A DNA stretch of 64,000 nt. It comes from a virus. The DNA is taken from the IMG/VR virus record IMGVR_UViG_3300029305_001279; one strand, 5' to 3'. Below are positions 2,349 through 19,606 of the stretch, in pieces (position 1 is the first letter of the stretch; the number at the start of each line of letters is the position of its first letter). A program made the position numbers and the translations under genes. The notes under the pieces were generated by a model. The model did no database searches and had not been told where the DNA came from. It was given only the letters and a program-made list of their open reading frames with translations.

Positions 2349-3992
2349 ATGAAAGTCATCAATGACCGCTGCCCCTTGCAGTCGGAATGTGAGCGGAAGA
2401 AGTGCGAGTTCAAGAACCATGAGCTCGACTGCTCCTACTACCATGCCAACTCCCGGCCCGGTTACGAGATCGCAGACCAGGAAGCGAAGCGCTGGTCCTC
2501 GAACAAGCTGACCTTCGACATGGACGAGGACTGGGACGATGACGAGGATCCGGGCGAAGAGGAAGAGCTGGCACCGAGACCCATCAACGGCCTGATGTGC
2601 AAGCTCCCCATCGATAAGCTGGTCCCCCATCCCGACAACCCCCGGAAGGAACTGGGCGACCTGACCGAGCTGGCCGCATCCATCGAGGCCAAGGGTGTGC
2701 TGCAGAACCTGACCGTCGTGGAAGCAGGCGACGACACCTACCGTATCATCATCGGCCACCGTCGGCACGCTGCTGCCAAGCTGGCAGGACTGACGAAATT
2801 GCCCTGTGTCATCGCCGTCATGACACCCCAGGAGCAGTTCGAGACCATGATGGTAGAGAATGTCCACCGCTCCGATCTGACCACCTACGAGCAGGCAGAA
2901 GGCTTCCAGATGATGCTGGACATGGGCGGCAGCGTTGAGGAGGTCGCCGAAAAGACCGGCTTCTCCGAAACCACCATCCGCCGGAGAGTGAAGCTGCTGG
3001 ATCTGGACAAACAGAAGTTCAAGAAGGCAGAGGAGCGCGGAGCCACCATGGGCGACTACCTGAAGTTGAGCGAGATCCAGGACCCCGAGCGCCGTAACAA
3101 GGTACTGGACACCATCGGAACCGCTAACTTCCACAACAGTCTGAAGGATGCCATTGCGGAAGAAAAATTCCTGGCCCGTATGGAGCGTGTGCGGAACTAC
3201 TTCCGGAACGAGCAGGACTGGTGCCGGGAGAAGACGGATGAAGAGATCGGCTATGGCGAGGGCCAGTATTCCTACCATACCGCCTACGACAAGTTCCATG
3301 CCGAAGATCCCAAGGCCCCGAGCAATGTCGGAAACGTTGATTACATCTGGGCCATCACTGCCCCCAACACCGTCACCATCTACAAGAAGGTCATCAAATC
3401 TGCGGAAAAGGCACCGCTGTCCCCCGAAGGCCAGCGGAAGCAGAAACTCAAGGAAGATCTGGAGGAAATCAAGAACGAGCTGAACCGTATTTCCAAGAAC
3501 CACCGGGAGATGCGTGAAGAGTTCATCCATGACTTCACGGCGGTCCATAACTACGAAATGGATATCCAGGAGTTCGCCGCCATGGCGCTGATCCATCAGT
3601 CAGACGGCTATGTTCACAGAATGGACACAGACCGGCTGGGCAATCTTCTGGGCGTCCAGGTCGACAGCAAGGGCATCATGGACGATGCCGGTATGAAGAA
3701 GGCGCTGTTCAATCGTCCCCAGTACGCACTCCTCTGCACTGCCTATGTGTCTCTGGAAGGCCCCGGCCAGAAGTACAACGACTCCGGCTACTGGATTACG
3801 GATGTCGGCTTCCCTCCCGAGCACAAGAAATCCCCCGCGCTGGATCTGATCTATAAAGGCCTGGAATCCATCGGCTATGAGATGTCCGATGAAGAACTGA
3901 TGATGCAGCGCGGTACCCATCCGCTGTACCAAAAGGCCAAGGAGCTGATCGCTGAGTACAAAAAGGCTCAGGAGGATGCAGGCCATGGCTAA
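2349..3992 (+). CDS. ParB/Srx N-terminal domain protein
   Basis: 547 aa; LPIDKLVPHPDNPRKE...GVLQNLTVV...YRIIIGHRRHAAAKLAGL matches the ParB-like nuclease/CTPase N-domain; Cys-rich first 30 aa and an acidic linker. Confidence 0.8.
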   Translation: MKVINDRCPLQSECERKKCEFKNHELDCSYYHANSRPGYEIADQEAKRWSSNKLTFDMDEDWDDDEDPGEEEELAPRPINGLMCKLPIDKLVPHPDNPRKELGDLTELAASIEAKGVLQNLTVVEAGDDTYRIIIGHRRHAAAKLAGLTKLPCVIAVMTPQEQFETMMVENVHRSDLTTYEQAEGFQMMLDMGGSVEEVAEKTGFSETTIRRRVKLLDLDKQKFKKAEERGATMGDYLKLSEIQDPERRNKVLDTIGTANFHNSLKDAIAEEKFLARMERVRNYFRNEQDWCREKTDEEIGYGEGQYSYHTAYDKFHAEDPKAPSNVGNVDYIWAITAPNTVTIYKKVIKSAEKAPLSPEGQRKQKLKEDLEEIKNELNRISKNHREMREEFIHDFTAVHNYEMDIQEFAAMALIHQSDGYVHRMDTDRLGNLLGVQVDSKGIMDDAGMKKALFNRPQYALLCTAYVSLEGPGQKYNDSGYWITDVGFPPEHKKSPALDLIYKGLESIGYEMSDEELMMQRGTHPLYQKAKELIAEYKKAQEDAGHG

Positions 3993-13986: not shown

Positions 13987-15889
13987 ATGAAATTAGGAAG
14001 CCTTTTTGATGGGTCGGGAGGATTCCCGCTCGCAGGAGAGCTTTGCGGCATAGAGCCGCGCTGGGCGGCTGAGATAGAGCCGTACCCAATCGCCGTTACA
14101 AGGGGGCGTTTCCCCTAACTTGGTACACCTTGGAAGTGTGACCGAGATCAACGGCGCAGAAATAGAAGCAGTAGATGTAATCACCTTTGGATCGCCGTGC
14201 CAGGATCTTTCCGTGGCTGGAAAGCGGGCAGGGCTGAAGCACTCAGCCAACGGCGACGATGAAACCACACGCAGCGGCCTATTCATGGAAGCCGTGCGAA
14301 TCATCAAGGAAATGAGGAAAGCCACAAATGGAAAATATCCGAAGTATGCAATATGGGAAAATGTCATGGGCGCCTTCAGCTCAAATGCCGGCGACGACTT
14401 CCGTGTCGTCCTCGAAGAACTCGTCAAAATCTGCGAACCGGAAGCACCCCCGATACCTTCGCCTGGTAAAGCGGGATGGCCATACGCCGACTGCATCATG
14501 GGAAACGGATTCAGCCTTGCTTACCGTGTTTTCGATGCGCAATACTGGCCCGGCACCCCTCAACGCAGAAAACGTATCTACCTTGTCCTCGATCTTACAG
14601 GCGAATGTGCCGAAAAAATACTATTTGAGCGCGAAGGCTTGCGAGGGCATTCTGAGAAGAGCCGAGCGCCGTGGGAAGGAGCTGCCGGAGATCCTCAAGG
14701 CCGCTCTGGAACAGACGATCCAGAGAGCAGCATAATAGCCATCGATCAACAAGGCGGCAAAGGCAACGCAAATTATGCCGTCGATGTGATGCCTACACTT
14801 TGCAGCGATAGCCATGGCACCCCTCATGCGGTAGCATACGGTGTAACGAGCAAAGGTAATGGAGATAGCTTCATCTCAGAGGAACGGCATACCGCTTTAT
14901 CTACAGGCGGAGGCCAACCGGGGCAGGGATATCCATGTGTGATGCAGCCCATAGCCTTCACCCAGAACCAGAGGGACGAACTGAGAGATCTGGGAGACAA
15001 AGCCGGAACCATACAAGCGGCGCCAGGAACGCATCAGCAGACCTTCATCATCGATAACATCGGAGGTCAAGCGGAATATGGAGTAGAAAGCACCGTAAAC
15101 GGCACCCTTCGAGCTGGTGGGCTGGGCGCTATTTGCTACGATGCCAGAGGAAATGGTGATGGTAAAACCGTCAATACGATCACCGGTGACCACAACAACC
15201 GCATAACAGATTATAGCTCTGTGGTGGTGTATAACGGTGAGAACATCACAAATCCAACGAACAAAGCAAACCCACAACCCGGTGACCCATGCCACACACT
15301 TGGAACCGATAGCAGGAATCACCTCGTATACTGCCTCCAAGGAAACGTCATTGACAGAGCCAATTCTGCCAGATGCAATGGCGAAGGATGGAAAGAGGAT
15401 GTGTGCTACACCCTGAATACCATCGACCGACCGGCTGTATCATACTCAACCGATGTCGGATTCTTTAATACCTGCGAGGATGTGTCCCCGACCATGCTTG
15501 CAAGGATGTACAAAGACCCTCACCTCGTATGCTACGAGGAAGAACCGCAATACATAGTCCGTCGCCTCACCCCTACCGAGTGCGCCAGACTGCAAGGCTT
15601 CCCAGACCGATGGGGAGACATACCACACAAAGAAAACCTCACGGACGAAGAGTACAGCTTCTGGCTGAACGTCCGAAACACCCACGCAGCCATCAACGGC
15701 AGAACTACGAAAGAATACACCAAGGATCAAATCCTCAAATGGTACAATAAACTTCACTCAGACAGTTCCGAATACAAAATGTGGGGCAATGGGATCGCCT
15801 TACCAAATGCCTTGTATGTCATGCAGGGCATAGCGGAGGCAATTAACCATGGTCGAGATCGATACGGAGAAGTGAAACAGAAAGGATAG
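13987..15889 (+). CDS. DNA (cytosine-5) methyltransferase requiring a +1 frameshift at 14113-14118
   Basis: Frame a 13987-14118 gives motif I LFDGSGGF and ends CCC TAA; the +1 frame gives NLVHLGSVTEING..FGSPCQDLS (IV), IWENV (VI), QRRKRIYLV (VIII), a long TRD, RRLTPTECARLQGFPDRW (IX), GNGIALPNA (X). Confidence 0.75.
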
Positions 15890-15898
15890 CAGGACAGC

Positions 15899-16969
15899 AT
15901 GATTAAATTGCTTATTGGCGGTTCCCCATGCACATTCTGGAGCATCGCCCAGAAGAATGGACGGGAAACCGAAGCAGAGGGCATGGGTTGGGAGCTGTTT
16001 AAGAACTACCTCATTGCCAAGGAAAAATTCCAGCCGGACTTTTTCCTTTACGAAAACAACAAATCGGCAGCACAAGCCATCAAGGATCAGATATCACATG
16101 AGCTGGGTGTGGATCTCATGCACATCAATAGTGCGCTGGTATCCGCGCAGAACCGTCAGCGATTCTACGCATTCAACTGGACGGTGGATCAGCCGGAGGA
16201 CCGCGGCATTTCGCTGAACGAAATTCTGGAAGATACACCCGATGAAATAGGCTGCAAAGTTTCCGGAGTCGGATATAGAAACCGCAGAGAGAGCGACGGA
16301 AAGCTGTATAGGCGTTTTGAAACAGACGGCAATCCCAAATCCAACGCTCTGACAACGGTGGACACCGATAGTATGGTTTGCATACCCGCTCACAGCGTCG
16401 CACTCCGCGGACGGGACCACAGATCTGCTTACGAAGTGAGCACCGGCGAAAAAGCGAATGCTCTCACGGGAAGTACCCAGCAACGGCGCATTATAAGACC
16501 TGCTGGAAAATTGCAAGACGGTATCACTTACGAGGTACATAATGGCCTTATTGAAATAAAAGGGAAAGAGTACCCCATCAATTTACCGGACGGCAGCTAT
16601 GTGATGCGGCATCTGACCCCGATAGAGTGCGAACGCCTACAGACGCTCCCTGATGGCTACACCGCCTGTGTGAGCAAAACCCAGCGACGGAAGGCTTTGG
16701 GCAACGGTTGGACGGCGGAGGTGATTATTCACATCCTGAACGGCGCTCTGGCAAACGTTCCTCGGGACGAGGAGATTGTGGTGCTGTCCATGTATGACGG
16801 TATCGCTACCGGTCGGTATTGCTTGGACAAGATGGGCTTCACCAACGTGCGCTATTACGCCTACGAGATCGATAAGTACGCAATGCAAGTCGCATTATCG
16901 AATTACCCGGACATCATCCATTGCGGTGATGCGTTCGATCTGAGAAACCCGGATTGGACAATTAACTAA
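15899..16969 (+). CDS. circularly permuted C5 DNA methyltransferase (motifs IV-X then I-III)
   Basis: 356 aa; N-terminus LLIGGSPCTFWS (IV), FLYENN (VI), SAQNRQRFY (VIII), RHLTPIECERLQTLPDGY (IX), LGNGWTAEV (X), then VLSMYDGIATGRYCL (I), YAYEID (II), HCGDAFDL (III) at the C-terminus. Confidence 0.7.
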   Translation: MIKLLIGGSPCTFWSIAQKNGRETEAEGMGWELFKNYLIAKEKFQPDFFLYENNKSAAQAIKDQISHELGVDLMHINSALVSAQNRQRFYAFNWTVDQPEDRGISLNEILEDTPDEIGCKVSGVGYRNRRESDGKLYRRFETDGNPKSNALTTVDTDSMVCIPAHSVALRGRDHRSAYEVSTGEKANALTGSTQQRRIIRPAGKLQDGITYEVHNGLIEIKGKEYPINLPDGSYVMRHLTPIECERLQTLPDGYTACVSKTQRRKALGNGWTAEVIIHILNGALANVPRDEEIVVLSMYDGIATGRYCLDKMGFTNVRYYAYEIDKYAMQVALSNYPDIIHCGDAFDLRNPDWTIN

Positions 16970-17059
16970 CAATCAGCAAACAGTCAACCAACCATTTTCG
17001 TGACCCCACGAAAATGATATCAAGATATCAAACCGCGCCCGGCGGGATCCGGGCACCAT

Positions 17060-17133
17060 GGATCAGCGGGGTGTGGCACCCATCTGCACAAAAGCTGCAG
17101 AAAGAGTCGGTTCGATTCCGGTCTGTTCCACCA
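17060..17133 (+). tRNA. aberrant tRNA-like gene (anticodon loop CAAAAGC, no U33)
   Basis: 74 nt cloverleaf: acceptor ggatcag/ctgttcc (one T-T mismatch), short D arm gggt-gtggc-accc, 6-bp anticodon stem tctgca/tgcaga, T arm gtcgg-TTCGATT-ccggt, encoded CCA; formal anticodon AAA with A33. Confidence 0.5.
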
Positions 17134-17508
17134 TGCGTGTGGCTCACGCACCCTTGAAACGATACATAGGGGAAAAGGGCTCTCTGTTTCTGTGGTGCAG
17201 CACGCAACAGAGGTGGCGACATAAATTATTAGATTGGCTGGCTCCGGCTTATAAAATCGAACGGATGCGACCGATGCACCGGCGCAGGGCTGAAAAGTTC
17301 CGTGATATTCCTTGGTATGGCTCTGGAATCGCAGAGCGAGGCGAAAAGGCCACCTGCAACGCGAGCGAAAGAGGCCGGCGGGTGGATAGAAGGATAATTG
17401 TGGAGTGGTACCGGCGGAGCTGAGGTTCCAGGCCGGTGTGTAGTTCACAGTGGTTACAGACCATACCGGGGATATGGTGAAAAGGAATACCCAGGAAAAG
17501 GAGAATAT

Positions 17509-17585
17509 GCCGCTGTAGCTGCAGCGGTTAGAGCAACTGACTTGTAATCAGTAGGTCGTGGGTTCAAATCCCACCAGCGGCTCCA
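17509..17585 (+). tRNA. tRNA-Thr (UGU)
   Basis: 77 nt; acceptor gccgctg/cagcggc, anticodon arm actga-CTTGTAA-tcagt, T arm gtggg-TTCAAAT-cccac, encoded CCA. Confidence 0.9.
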
Positions 17586-17687
17586 CCGGGCATAGCCCGG
17601 CATAATGTCCTCCTTTTTCTGTTTTCTGACGGCCCGGAAAGACGGGAAGACCTGGGGCGATGGTTATCTATCGCCCTGGGCACCTAC

Positions 17688-17761
17688 GTCGGCGTAGCTC
17701 AATGGTAGAGCACCTGCCTTCCAAGCAGGCAACGCGGGTTCGATTCCCGTCACCGGCTCCA
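17688..17761 (+). tRNA. tRNA-Gly (UCC)
   Basis: 74 nt; D arm gctc-aatggta-gagc, anticodon arm cctgc-CTTCCAA-gcagg, 4-nt variable loop, T arm gcggg-TTCGATT-cccgt, CCA; one C-A mismatch in the acceptor stem. Confidence 0.85.
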
Positions 17762-17854
17762 CTTGCTTTCATTCTTTTTCTCCTCTCCTAATGGCGGCTC
17801 GGAAAGACGAGAAGTGCCGTGCAGGCCTGGTAAACCTGCACGGTGCGCCATTAC

Positions 17855-17930
17855 GCTCATGTAACTCAGCTGGTAGAGTAACGGATTTTTAATCCGTGAG
17901 TCGCGGGTTCGATTCCCTCCATGGGCACCA
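17855..17930 (+). tRNA. tRNA-Lys (UUU)
   Basis: 76 nt; acceptor gctcatg/catgggc, D arm actc-agctggta-gagt, anticodon arm acgga-TTTTTAA-tccgt, T loop TTCGATT, CCA. Confidence 0.85.
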
Positions 17931-18022
17931 AAATACGTAACTATACTTTGCATATTTTCCGGCAAAGATGAAAGTTTGAGCATCAAAACAGAAAAATACG
18001 CAAATTGAAAGGGGGCGATGCC

Positions 18023-19606
18023 ATGATTATTCGTCCGCAGCCGAAGCAGGAGGAATTCCTGAGCAATCCGGCAGACATCATCATTTATGGTGGAGCCGCG
18101 GGCGGTGGTTAGCAAGGTAAGACATACGCCCTCCTCTTGGAAGAGTGCCGCAACAGCGACAACCCACGATTCAACTCGGTAATCTTCCGTAGAAATAACA
18201 CACAGATCTTCACGAACGGCGGTCTCTGGGATTCCGGCATGGCTCTGCTCCCTCTGATCGGCGCACAGCCGAAGAAAACCCCGAAACCGTCCTTCATCTT
18301 CCCATCCGGCGCAAAGGTAACATTCGACCACCTGGAACGTTACAGCGACTGCCTCTCTTACCAGGGCTCGCAGATCGTCTTCATCGGCTTTGACGAGCTG
18401 ACCCACTTCGACGAGGATGTCTTCTGGTATATGCTGTCCCGTAACCGTTCGGACTCCGGTATTCCCGGCTATGTCCGAGCTACCACCAACCCTGACCCTG
18501 ACTCATGGGTCCGCACATTCATTGACTGGTGGATTGGCCCTGATGGTCTGGCTATCCCGGAGCGCAGCGGCAAGATCCGCTGGATGATCCGAATCAACGG
18601 CGAGGTGGTCTGGGGCAATTCCCGGATGGAGCTGCTGCAGCGGCAGTTTGATGGTGACATCACCGCCGTGGACAAGAGCCACACATCGACGGATGAACTG
18701 TTCGTTCCGGATCCAAAGGACAGCAAGATCCAGATCATCGTCAAGCCCGGTGTGGAGGGCACACTGTACATAGCTACTCAGACAAAGCAGTTCTTCCAAT
18801 GGTCAGGCGGTGAGTACCGGGAGCTGATGCCCCCGAAGTCCGTGACCTTCATCTGCTCCACATTGCAGGACAATGCCATCCTGATGAAGAATGACCCGAG
18901 CTACCTGGCCAACCTGAAGGCCCTGCCCCTCGTTGAACAGGAGCGGCTGCTGGGCGGCAACTGGAACATCCGTCCTGCTGCTGGCCTTTACTTCCCTCGT
19001 GACAAGGCGAAGCTCATTGACGAGATACCGGATGACCTGGTGCGTGTTGTCCGCGCATGGGACCTTGCAGGCACAGAGGACAAGAAGAACAACAACCCCG
19101 AGGACGGCCCCGCATACACGGCCGGTGTGCTGATCGGCAAGCGCAAGAGCGGAAAGCTGGTTGTCCTCGACGTTATCAATAAGCGGCTCAATGCCAGCGA
19201 TGTGCGAAACCTGGTATTGACCACCGCACGAGCTGACAAGGCAGCATATAAATCCAAATACAGAATCCGCATGAACCAGGATCCCGGCCAGGCCGGTGTG
19301 GATCAGAAGGAACAGTACATAAAGCTGCTGTCCGGCTTCAGCGTCAACATCGAGCGAGAGTCCGGCAGCAAGGAAGTCCGCGCGGAGCCGCTGTCTGCTC
19401 AGTGGATCAACGGCAATGTGGAAGTCCTGAACAGACCATGGACATCAGAGTACCTGGCCCAGCTGGACGGCTTCCCAGACCGGAAGTTCAAGGATATGGC
19501 CGATGCCAGCAACACAGGCTTCCTGGAGCTGGAGAAGTTCAACACCGTATCCGTACCGAAGGACAACAGTGCCCTGGCCAAGCAGAGCTACTGGTTCAAG
19601 AATTAA
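18023..19606 (+). CDS. terL: terminase large subunit with an in-frame TAG in the Walker A loop
   Basis: ATG 18023 behind AGGGGG; MIIRPQPKQEEFLSNPADIIIYGGAAGGG-TAG(18110)-QGKTYALLLE..., same frame as track ORF 18137..19606 (IVFIGFDELTHF Walker B, nuclease C-domain); no other stop. Confidence 0.75.

Follow-up and report, generated by a model that had tools for sequence, protein, structure and literature searches.

The locus

Positions 17060-17508 of a 64,000-nucleotide (nt) stretch of viral DNA (IMG/VR record IMGVR_UViG_3300029305_001279; the whole stretch is referred to here as the window) contain an aberrant tRNA-like gene followed directly by a sequence that had been left unassigned, and these two elements are the subject of this study. 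The tRNA-like gene occupies 17060-17133 of the plus strand, to which all window coordinates refer. In the sequence that follows, we find a structured non-coding RNA of about 358 nt (17134-17491), identified by covariance models and covariation, the 3′ end of which may reach 17508, the last base before the next tRNA gene. Three canonical tRNA genes lie 3′ of this stretch, as a first-pass annotation of the window made from the sequence alone had stated: tRNA-Thr-UGU (17509-17585), tRNA-Gly-UCC (17688-17761) and tRNA-Lys-UUU (17855-17930), all called on the plus strand by ARAGORN and scoring 65-67 bits each with the Rfam tRNA model. The island is flanked on its 5′ side by two adjoining C5 cytosine methylase genes (14120-15889 and 15899-16969) and on its 3′ side by terL (Terminase_6N/6C) and a Mu-type portal gene.

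A conserved family of structured RNAs

The first-pass annotation had seen no plausible open reading frame in 17134-17508 and had suggested, on the precedent of the phage T4 tRNA cluster, that the stretch might give a stable non-tRNA species. Our results agree with the first statement and strongly support the second. Insertions and deletions relative to the two nearest relatives are mostly of 1, 2 or 5 nt across the open frames of the region, and because these are mostly not multiples of three we conclude that the frames are not conserved as frames and are not genes. The predicted fold of 17134-17508 beats 100 of 100 shuffled sequences (z = -2.9). A lack of conservation in relatives, which the annotation had named as grounds for dismissing the element, does not apply to this part of it, since a 24-nt core (17281-17304) is present exactly in at least 119 IMG/VR contigs. 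The same core is present in 2 of 50,697 GenBank phage records, the only two that match inside the stretch by blastn; both are unannotated uncultured scaffolds from human faeces, and each has the RNA directly preceded by an aberrant tRNA-like element with ACCA at its end. A 23-nt version of the core occurs in four metagenome-assembled genomes (MAGs) named Oscillospiraceae, Oscillibacter or Eubacteriales.

Two covariance models were built in this analysis, R1 of the 3′ domain and R2 of the 5′ domain and core. Each is found in one copy in 54 of 62 sources, divergent members without the exact core included, and R2 matches 3 of 151 genomes of the Oscillospiraceae family. The window has a single match to each model, R2 at 17131-17308 (81.9 bits) and R1 at 17293-17491 (54.2 bits). 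When the related loci are aligned, the conserved span runs from the T arm of the tRNA-like unit to about 17490 and ends there. The RNA family exists, and it covaries. It appears to be missing from current collections: a search of Rfam 15 at E ≤ 10 over 16600-18100 gave no family matching 17134-17508 apart from a hit of the tmRNA_permuted model to the T arm, and at E ≤ 1 there was no match inside the RNA in eight related loci. The GOLLD, ROOL and tmRNA models, which the annotation had proposed for this search, were among those that did not match the stretch. Literature searches by sequence and by description, which did not extend to the supplements of a 10,000-candidate virus RNA catalogue, turned up no account of such an RNA. 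A resemblance to RNase P RNA was also considered and rejected, there being no match to the bacterial, archaeal or type-T models at E ≤ 10; two short strings that resemble it, CCGGCUUA and GAAAAGUUCCG, come in an order that does not fit and form local pairs. A GAAA-receptor motif, sought by eye, did not hold up.

Secondary structure and covariation

The structure was analysed in two main alignments, A4 for the 3′ domain and A6 for the 5′ domain and core, the latter with a manually chosen core pairing. In A4, 97.6% of the cells are paired and 20 of 29 pairs have changed on both sides, and in A6 the corresponding values are 97.2% and 20 of 36, with the qualification that both alignments were fitted to their own models, which inflates the percentage paired and leaves the independent count of pair types unaffected. 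None of 500 shuffles equalled either alignment, and slid controls reached 32-48% for A4 and 34-52% for A6. RNAalifold, applied to 30 sequences of the commonest subtype, placed two elements in the 3′ half, a long closing helix and a bulged hairpin, with compensatory changes at 14 of 29 pairs; a plain scan for stacked complementary columns was noisy owing to its tolerance of G-U pairs.

The RNA begins directly after the CCA of the tRNA-like gene with a hairpin, P1 (17134-17150, UGCGUG-UGGCU-CACGCA, read from the sequence), which is one of two hairpins named by the first-pass annotation; both exist, the other being that at 17320-17325/17332-17337. In other subtypes the position of P1 (17134-17139/17145-17150 in the window) is taken by a hairpin of other sequence, AGGC/GCCU, GAUG/CAUU or GCGU/ACGC (alignment A5, by eye). 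P2 (17151-17171) is formed by CCCU/AGGG around a conserved loop, GAAACGAUACAU, and has equivalents of the form CGCAG/CUGCG and GCGG/CCGC elsewhere; three of its four pairs have changed on both sides (A6 helix 1). P3 (17182-17212) is the stem CUCUGUU/AACAGAG, which encloses an inner stem and a loop of the GUGCAG type, and here all 10 of 10 pairs show changes on both sides and 95% of the cells are paired (A6 helix 3). P4 (17236-17249, GGCUG-GCUC-CGGCU) carries an invariant U-G wobble and is 97% paired (A6 helix 4); its pair 183/194 in A6 is seen as G-C, U-A, C-G or U-G.

The most constant part of the molecule is a near-invariant three-way core (17261-17303), to which the exact 24-mer belongs. 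It is formed by ACGGA/UCCGU around UGCG-A-CCG...CGG-CGCA and a GCU-GAAA-AGU hairpin. Compensation in this region is found in divergent members, here given by the L numbers of their loci: in L128 as ACGGU/ACCGU, UCCG/CGGA and CUG/CAG, in L142 as UACG/CGUA, and in L006 as U-A for G-C in the CCG/CGG stem. The core pairing given by RNAalifold on the seed alignment (GGGCU/AGUUC with a long-range stem) was replaced by ACGGA/UCCGU, which is preferred because L128 compensates there. Two degenerate patterns that would find single-pair variants of the core each gave zero matches in IMG/VR. Among the loci that were collected by it, the core does not vary; overall, sequences either match it exactly or differ from it at many positions together, and its primary sequence is therefore under unusually strong constraint.

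In the 3′ domain, 17305-17320 is the 5′ strand of the long closing helix, the partner of which lies at 17461-17475 (A4 helix 2); all eight of its pairs have changed on both sides and 97.5% of the cells are paired. The second of the hairpins named in the annotation, GCUCUG-GAAUCG-CAGAGC (17320-17337), is read from the sequence, and an alternative distal pairing exists for it. It lies just 5′ of a conserved GAGGCG (17338-17343), where other subtypes have a different hairpin (by eye). A lineage-specific insertion of about 45 nt follows in the alignment (17345-17392), common to L016 and L126; other loci have at least 96% gaps over 17361-17390 and 81% over 17351-17360. At 17400-17443 a conserved GUGGAGUGGU is followed by the bulged hairpin ACCGGC-[GGAGC-UGAG-GUUCC]-AG-GCCGGU and then by GUGUAG, and all 10 pairs of this helix have changed on both sides, with 99% of the cells paired (A4 helix 5). 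The 3′ strand of the long helix and, after it, a conserved (U/G)GUG-A-rich tail occupy 17461-17485 (A4, the tail being TGTG in alignment A3). The segments GAGGCG, GUGGNGUGGU and GUGUAG are possible pseudoknot partners.

Several G-U and U-G pairs are invariant, and for this reason we read the RNA from the plus strand. This bears on the idea that the conserved sequence might act as DNA, either as a tRNA-type attP used by an integrase or as a pac or cos site used by the terminase, for which one could cite the integrase gene found within about 0.6-0.9 kb 5′ of the RNA in about 20 loci and the terL gene found 3′ of it in many. A role at the DNA level is made unlikely by the invariant G-U pairs, which are valid on one strand only, and compensatory changes have kept the helices while their sequence changed. 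In addition, the window has no homologue of that integrase, which is a tyrosine integrase found in the loci of one subfamily; the tRNA-shaped units lie inside islands of several tRNAs, and one of them, reduced to a microhelix, matches no tRNA. We consider a DNA site highly improbable.

The tRNA-like gene

The first-pass annotation had described 17060-17133 as a full but non-canonical cloverleaf with an encoded CCA, and reading of the sequence confirms each of the features it listed. ARAGORN calls a 74-nt tRNA-Phe(aaa) on the plus strand, and the cloverleaf is complete. The acceptor stem, GGAUCAG/CUGUUCC, has a U-U mismatch at pair 4, so that six of seven pairs are formed. The D stem has four base pairs (bp) and a 5-nt loop, GUGGC. 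The anticodon stem, UCUGCA/UGCAGA, has 6 bp and carries the loop CAAAAGC, with a formal anticodon AAA and A in place of U33. The T arm, GUCGG-UUCGAUU-CCGGU, has a loop of the UUCRANY type and is followed by A and the encoded CCA. A canonical tRNA would have U33, a 7-nt loop on a 5-bp stem and a conserved anticodon, and this combination is lacking here. The combined use of ARAGORN and Rfam that had been proposed as a check gives a divided answer, in that ARAGORN accepts a tRNA-Phe(AAA) while the Rfam tRNA model (RF00005) scores 17060-17130 at 24.2 bits, below its gathering threshold of 29 (E = 0.029 in 1.5 kb). The fold energy is close to that of shuffled sequence (z = -1.1). Taken alone, 17060-17133 is a borderline tRNA element, and it is the most decayed among the upstream units that we examined. 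It does not belong to a tmRNA: ARAGORN reports none, and the tmRNA_permuted model scores 12.3 bits against a gathering threshold of 47, on the T arm alone and at chance level.

A 21-mer over the anticodon loop has zero matches in other IMG/VR contigs, and a 20-mer across the junction with the RNA has four matches in JGI metagenomes, all of them unrelated and at chance level; nothing nearly identical to the gene is therefore present in the collections searched. These observations bear on one of the options that the annotation had offered, namely that the tRNA-like molecule with A33 and anticodon AAA takes part in decoding and promotes or perturbs stop-codon-dependent frameshifts. The cloverleaf shape and the encoded CCA agree with such a role, and nothing else does. 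The score is below the Rfam threshold, the acceptor mismatch, the missing U33 and the 6-bp anticodon stem all speak against decoding, and the loop is unique in IMG/VR. The homologue in L126, the closest relative, is broken differently, with a 5-nt loop, the same slot in other loci holds many tRNA identities, and relatives of terL at 71-77% identity do without the whole island. A decoding role is thus extremely unlikely. The annotation's option of a decoding-defective pseudogene holds in part: decoding appears to be lost, and what does not fit is decay of the whole gene, because the acceptor stem, T arm and CCA look maintained. The option that fits best is its second, a handle for RNase P or RNase Z that releases the adjacent RNA, and we use the word handle for such units below. 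Its support comes from the comparison of loci, in which the RNA starts directly after N-C-C/A-A in 100 of 101 cases and the upstream units retain acceptor stem, T stem and CCA while their anticodon regions are scrambled.

A fixed junction behind interchangeable units

Across the family, the sole constant neighbour of the RNA is a tRNA-shaped unit on its 5′ side. The first conserved bases of the RNA are preceded by NCCA or ACAA in 100 of the 101 loci that could be classified (NCCA in 93 and ACAA in 6, with one further case of the ACAA type). The units that supply this junction are diverse. Of the upstream units of 106 loci, ARAGORN identifies 46 as tRNAs, most often Gly-UCC (21), Trp (9), Met (5), Ser (4) or Gly-CCC (3), with Thr and Cys among the others, and leaves the remaining 60 uncalled, although several of these still score 40-54 bits with the Rfam tRNA model. 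Conversely, each of the five types of 5′ sequence found in the RNA occurs behind 2-13 different upstream contexts.

What is kept in these units is illustrated by one lineage of 18 distinct handles. The acceptor stem is GCAGACG/CGUCUGC (GCAGAUG in one copy), all have A73 and C(C/A)A, and the T stems show compensatory changes (GCAGG/CCUGC, GCUGG/CCAGC, GUUGG/CCAAC and GUGGG/CCCAC), whereas the span from the D arm to the T arm consists of unrelated sequences of widely differing lengths with no shared anticodon. In another type of handle the D arm is capped by a GNRA loop and the T loop is non-canonical, yet the four-arm shape and ACCA are kept. The extreme case is a prophage copy in a genome of the Oscillospiraceae family (L142), where the RNA is preceded by nothing more than a 9-bp microhelix with ACCA and is followed immediately by a terminator-like hairpin. 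The comparison of these sequences shows the upstream unit to be interchangeable, with an anticodon region that is free to decay.

The exactness of this junction raises the possibility that the RNA makes the cut itself, that is, that it is a large self-cleaving ribozyme which cuts at its own 5′ N-CCA junction, matures the 3′ end of the upstream tRNA and releases itself. The junction is exact to the nucleotide in 100 of 101 loci and does not depend on the kind of unit that precedes it, and a core of about 40 nt that is invariant, with no single-pair variants in IMG/VR, is what an active site would show. There is also a precedent in the theta ribozymes, which are HDV-like minimal double pseudoknots that start within about 1 nt of the 3′ end of phage tRNAs and cleave there; they are found mostly in gut Caudoviricetes, with Bacteroidota as about 90% of the predicted hosts, and it has been proposed that they help to process tRNAs and transcripts (PMC10879173). 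They hold the same position behind gut-phage tRNAs as our RNA does in 100 of 101 loci, an analogy that is one of position only. Because of this precedent, we allow self-cutting of the junction some probability, and we rate it low for three reasons: the RNA has no match among the HDV, hammerhead, twister, pistol and hatchet models, it opens with a plain hairpin, and in many loci the unit before it is no functional tRNA, so that there would be nothing to gain from maturing it. The HDV and theta fold requires a nested double pseudoknot, with a 7-bp P1 from +1 whose partner strand lies at least 20 nt downstream and a catalytic C in J4/2. In all subtypes of our family the +1 helix is instead a local hairpin with a loop of 5-10 nt, and no double pseudoknot was found, by an inspection by eye that could miss a very divergent fold. 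The window RNA is also five times larger than a theta ribozyme, its 300-360 nt being far above the size of known self-cleavers, and it lies behind CCA-bearing units in phages of Oscillospiraceae-type hosts. Cutting by the RNA itself would give tRNAs that already bear CCA a cyclic phosphate at A76, and among theta-associated tRNAs only 4.5% encode CCA (PMC10879173). If it did cleave itself, the RNA would be a functional counterpart, of much greater size, to the theta ribozymes; self-cleavage is unlikely on balance. In the boldest form of this idea, the invariant core would be the catalytic centre of a novel large ribozyme, and its precise cut after N-CCA would free both the upstream tRNA or mimic and the ribozyme; gut phages would then carry an RNA counterpart of RNase Z, which we regard as quite improbable.

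Alternatively, the handle could stay attached, so that the tRNA-like unit and the RNA form a chimeric molecule, the tRNA-shaped end of which would contact a partner that binds tRNAs, for example RNase P, the CCA-adding enzyme, a synthetase, EF-Tu or the ribosome. Such a molecule would account for the selection seen on acceptor stem, T stem and CCA even in mimics that do not decode, and for the missing spacer between CCA and RNA; GOLLD RNAs, moreover, have been reported with embedded tRNAs and to pull down ribosomes. It is harder to reconcile with the free exchange of handles among unrelated tRNA lineages and their reduction to a microhelix in one prophage, with an internal CCA that is not aminoacylatable, and with L126, where the RNA stands behind a normal tRNA-Lys and a 13-nt spacer. 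Inspection by eye also showed no covariation between the discriminator base and the conserved UGG-containing motif of the RNA, and none of the pairings considered between UGG motifs and the discriminator-CCA held up. We think a lasting chimera rather unlikely.

Proposed maturation and comparison with known RNAs

Our best explanation is that 17060-17508 is one two-part module in a phage tRNA island, made up of a non-decoding, tRNA-derived handle and a conserved structured RNA, the latter belonging to a heavily paired family of about 300-360 nt that is carried by uncultured gut phages of Oscillospiraceae-type hosts and is missing from Rfam 15. We put the probability of this explanation as a whole at about 0.6. 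The handle retains the features by which tRNA-processing enzymes recognise their substrates, namely the acceptor helix, T arm, discriminator base and CCA. The island would be transcribed as a single precursor in which the handle serves as punctuation: RNase P would cut on its 5′ side, a cut at the CCA by an RNase Z-type or other endonuclease would free the RNA with a defined 5′ end, and in the window the action of RNase P on tRNA-Thr would set its 3′ end. The freed RNA might then act in trans through its invariant three-way core, most likely as a binding platform or an RNA-only assembly, if the analogy with other large RNAs of phage tRNA islands holds.

Several points weigh against this explanation, besides the fitting of the alignments to their own models noted above. 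Co-transcription and cleavage at the CCA are inferred, and a simple scan of the plus strand over 16800-18200 found no sigma-70-like promoter and no terminator. The helices of the core are supported by a small number of divergent lineages, since the exact core was the means of collecting the loci. Adjacency at the junction is not absolute, since L126 has about 13 nt between CCA and P1, handles of the type seen in L128 end in AUCA, and a few others end in CAA. Finally, RNase Z of Bacillus subtilis is inhibited by an encoded CCA, which makes it uncertain which enzyme would cut at the CCA in these hosts.

Handles of the kind proposed have been described in other systems. In the tRNA-miRNA units of murine gammaherpesvirus 68, in MALAT1-mascRNA and in the tRNA punctuation of mitochondria, a non-decoding tRNA shape serves as a module for RNase P and RNase Z that frees a neighbouring RNA, and the anticodon region is dispensable. 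Those handles are eukaryotic or organellar and lack CCA, in contrast to the window handle, which is phage-borne and carries CCA; no bacterial or phage processing handle with an encoded CCA is known to us. Species 1 and 2 of the T4 tRNA cluster, the precedent cited in the first-pass annotation, are small stable RNAs of unknown function cut from a common precursor. They measure about 120-140 nt against about 300-360 nt in the window family and are likened to it here by description only, and we know of no comparable family-wide covariation structure for them.

The closest parallels by location are GOLLD (RF01998) and ROOL (RF03087), large multi-helix RNAs of phages and prophages that occur near or in tRNA islands, some directly 3′ of a tRNA, and have no known protein partner or function. 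The RNA described here shares with them its phage or prophage location beside tRNA genes. It differs in having no sequence similarity to them and no match to their covariance models (E ≤ 10 in the window and E ≤ 1 in eight related loci), in its length of about 300-360 nt, which is half or less of the roughly 580 nt of ROOL and the 800 nt or more of GOLLD, and in a 5′ end whose position is set by the CCA of a tRNA or tRNA mimic. On our best reading it represents a new RNA class from the genomic niche that GOLLD and ROOL occupy. Large, elaborately folded RNAs are rare in bacteria and phages, and the architectures of GOLLD and ROOL proved unprecedented; a further class from their niche, with more than 100 natural variants at hand, is of interest for this reason. 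Its near-constant fusion behind a swappable tRNA-shaped unit is a clear structural rule, from which it follows that one can ask, in a testable form, whether phages use tRNA-shaped punctuation, as mitochondria and a herpesvirus do, to excise functional RNAs from the transcripts of tRNA arrays. A caution for annotation also arises, in that "tRNAs" with odd anticodons in phage islands may be processing handles and not suppressors or recoding factors.

Genomic contexts of the RNA

The closest relative of the window by terL, L126 (90% identical), has an RNA of the same subtype, including the insertion of about 45 nt, but placed behind a true tRNA-Lys(UUU) and directly before terL. Its homologue of the window handle is found elsewhere in the island (2017-2091 of that locus, 40.3 bits) and ends in CAA; the two share the 3′ strand of the acceptor and have similar T arms, and they differ in the D and anticodon arms. 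In relatives of terL at 78% identity, represented by L128, the RNA is present as a divergent copy that directly precedes terL and follows a mini-tRNA with a long stem, and relatives at 71-77% identity have neither the RNAs nor the tRNAs. This patchy and rearranged presence argues that the island is an accessory, shuffled array of cassettes. Over the family as a whole, terL genes of three families lie 0.6-2.1 kb 3′ of the RNA on the same strand in 25 of the 65 loci with enough flanking sequence, about 20 loci have the tyrosine integrase gene on the 5′ side and an HU gene on the 3′ side, and others have methylase or aminotransferase genes.

In principle, the frequent position 5′ of terL could mean that the RNA is a cis-acting leader of the late or packaging genes downstream, whether as an antiterminator, a riboswitch-like element or a translational regulator, and in L126 and L128 it does end about 15-70 nt before the terL start codon. 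In the window, however, three tRNAs separate the RNA from terL, and 40 of the 65 loci have no terL of those families within 4.5 kb. The contexts with an integrase gene 5′ and HU 3′, or with an aminotransferase gene, also do not fit, nor does the terminator-like hairpin that follows the RNA in the prophage copy, and the tRNA junction rule would be left unexplained. A leader function is quite unlikely.

In one subfamily (L001 at 1735-1805, and L003, L005, L013, L028 and others) there is a second conserved, hairpin-rich piece 3′ of the RNA, GUAGCCC-UUCG-GGGCGGG...GGGGCGGGGGCUGGUAGC, which ends just before a ribosome-binding site and ATG and could be a separate leader element.

Other features of the islands

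In the pair of methylase genes just 5′ of the island, the best Pfam stretch of the gene at 14120-15889 covers residues 3-102 on profile positions 46-131, and that of the gene at 15899-16969 covers residues 2-280 on positions 62-319, so that the protein begins inside the domain. Between them and the tRNA-like gene are two hairpins, one at 16995-17014 (TTTTCGTG-ACCC-CACGAAAA) and a GC-rich one at 17035-17056, which stops 4 nt before the first base of the handle and resembles hairpins that precede other tRNA units. A repeated hairpin motif, CGGCYCGGAAAGACGRG, occurs in the spacers at 17630-17646 and 17795-17811, about 40-45 nt 5′ of tRNA-Gly and tRNA-Lys, with a U-rich tract on its 5′ side and a second GC-rich hairpin on its 3′ side. 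The motif also precedes tRNA units in related loci (L002 at about 1268-1290 and L126 at about 2140-2165), and it may mark the boundary of a cassette or serve as a signal for processing. The PtaRNA1 model of Rfam has a sub-threshold match to it (24.3 bits against 47).

Further tRNA-like elements are present in the related islands. L126 has a mini-tRNA at 2205-2262, GGAUCCG...GCUGG-UUCGAUU-CCAGC-CGGAUCC-GCCACC, with a 7-bp acceptor stem and a T arm and without D or anticodon arms. L128 has two tRNA-like genes (1428-1502 and 1939-2015) that share acceptor and T arms (GCCGAUG.../GCCGG-UUCGAGU-CCGGC) and have scrambled anticodon arms, called by ARAGORN as undetermined and as Cys-ACA. After the second come about 280 nt (2016-2297) that contain no open reading frame and no obvious gene and may represent another RNA led by a handle. 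In L140, a contig of a Eubacteriales MAG, a type II hammerhead ribozyme (2991-3059, plus strand; 47.7 bits against the Rfam threshold of 37) is found some 1.3 kb away from the RNA and on the other strand.

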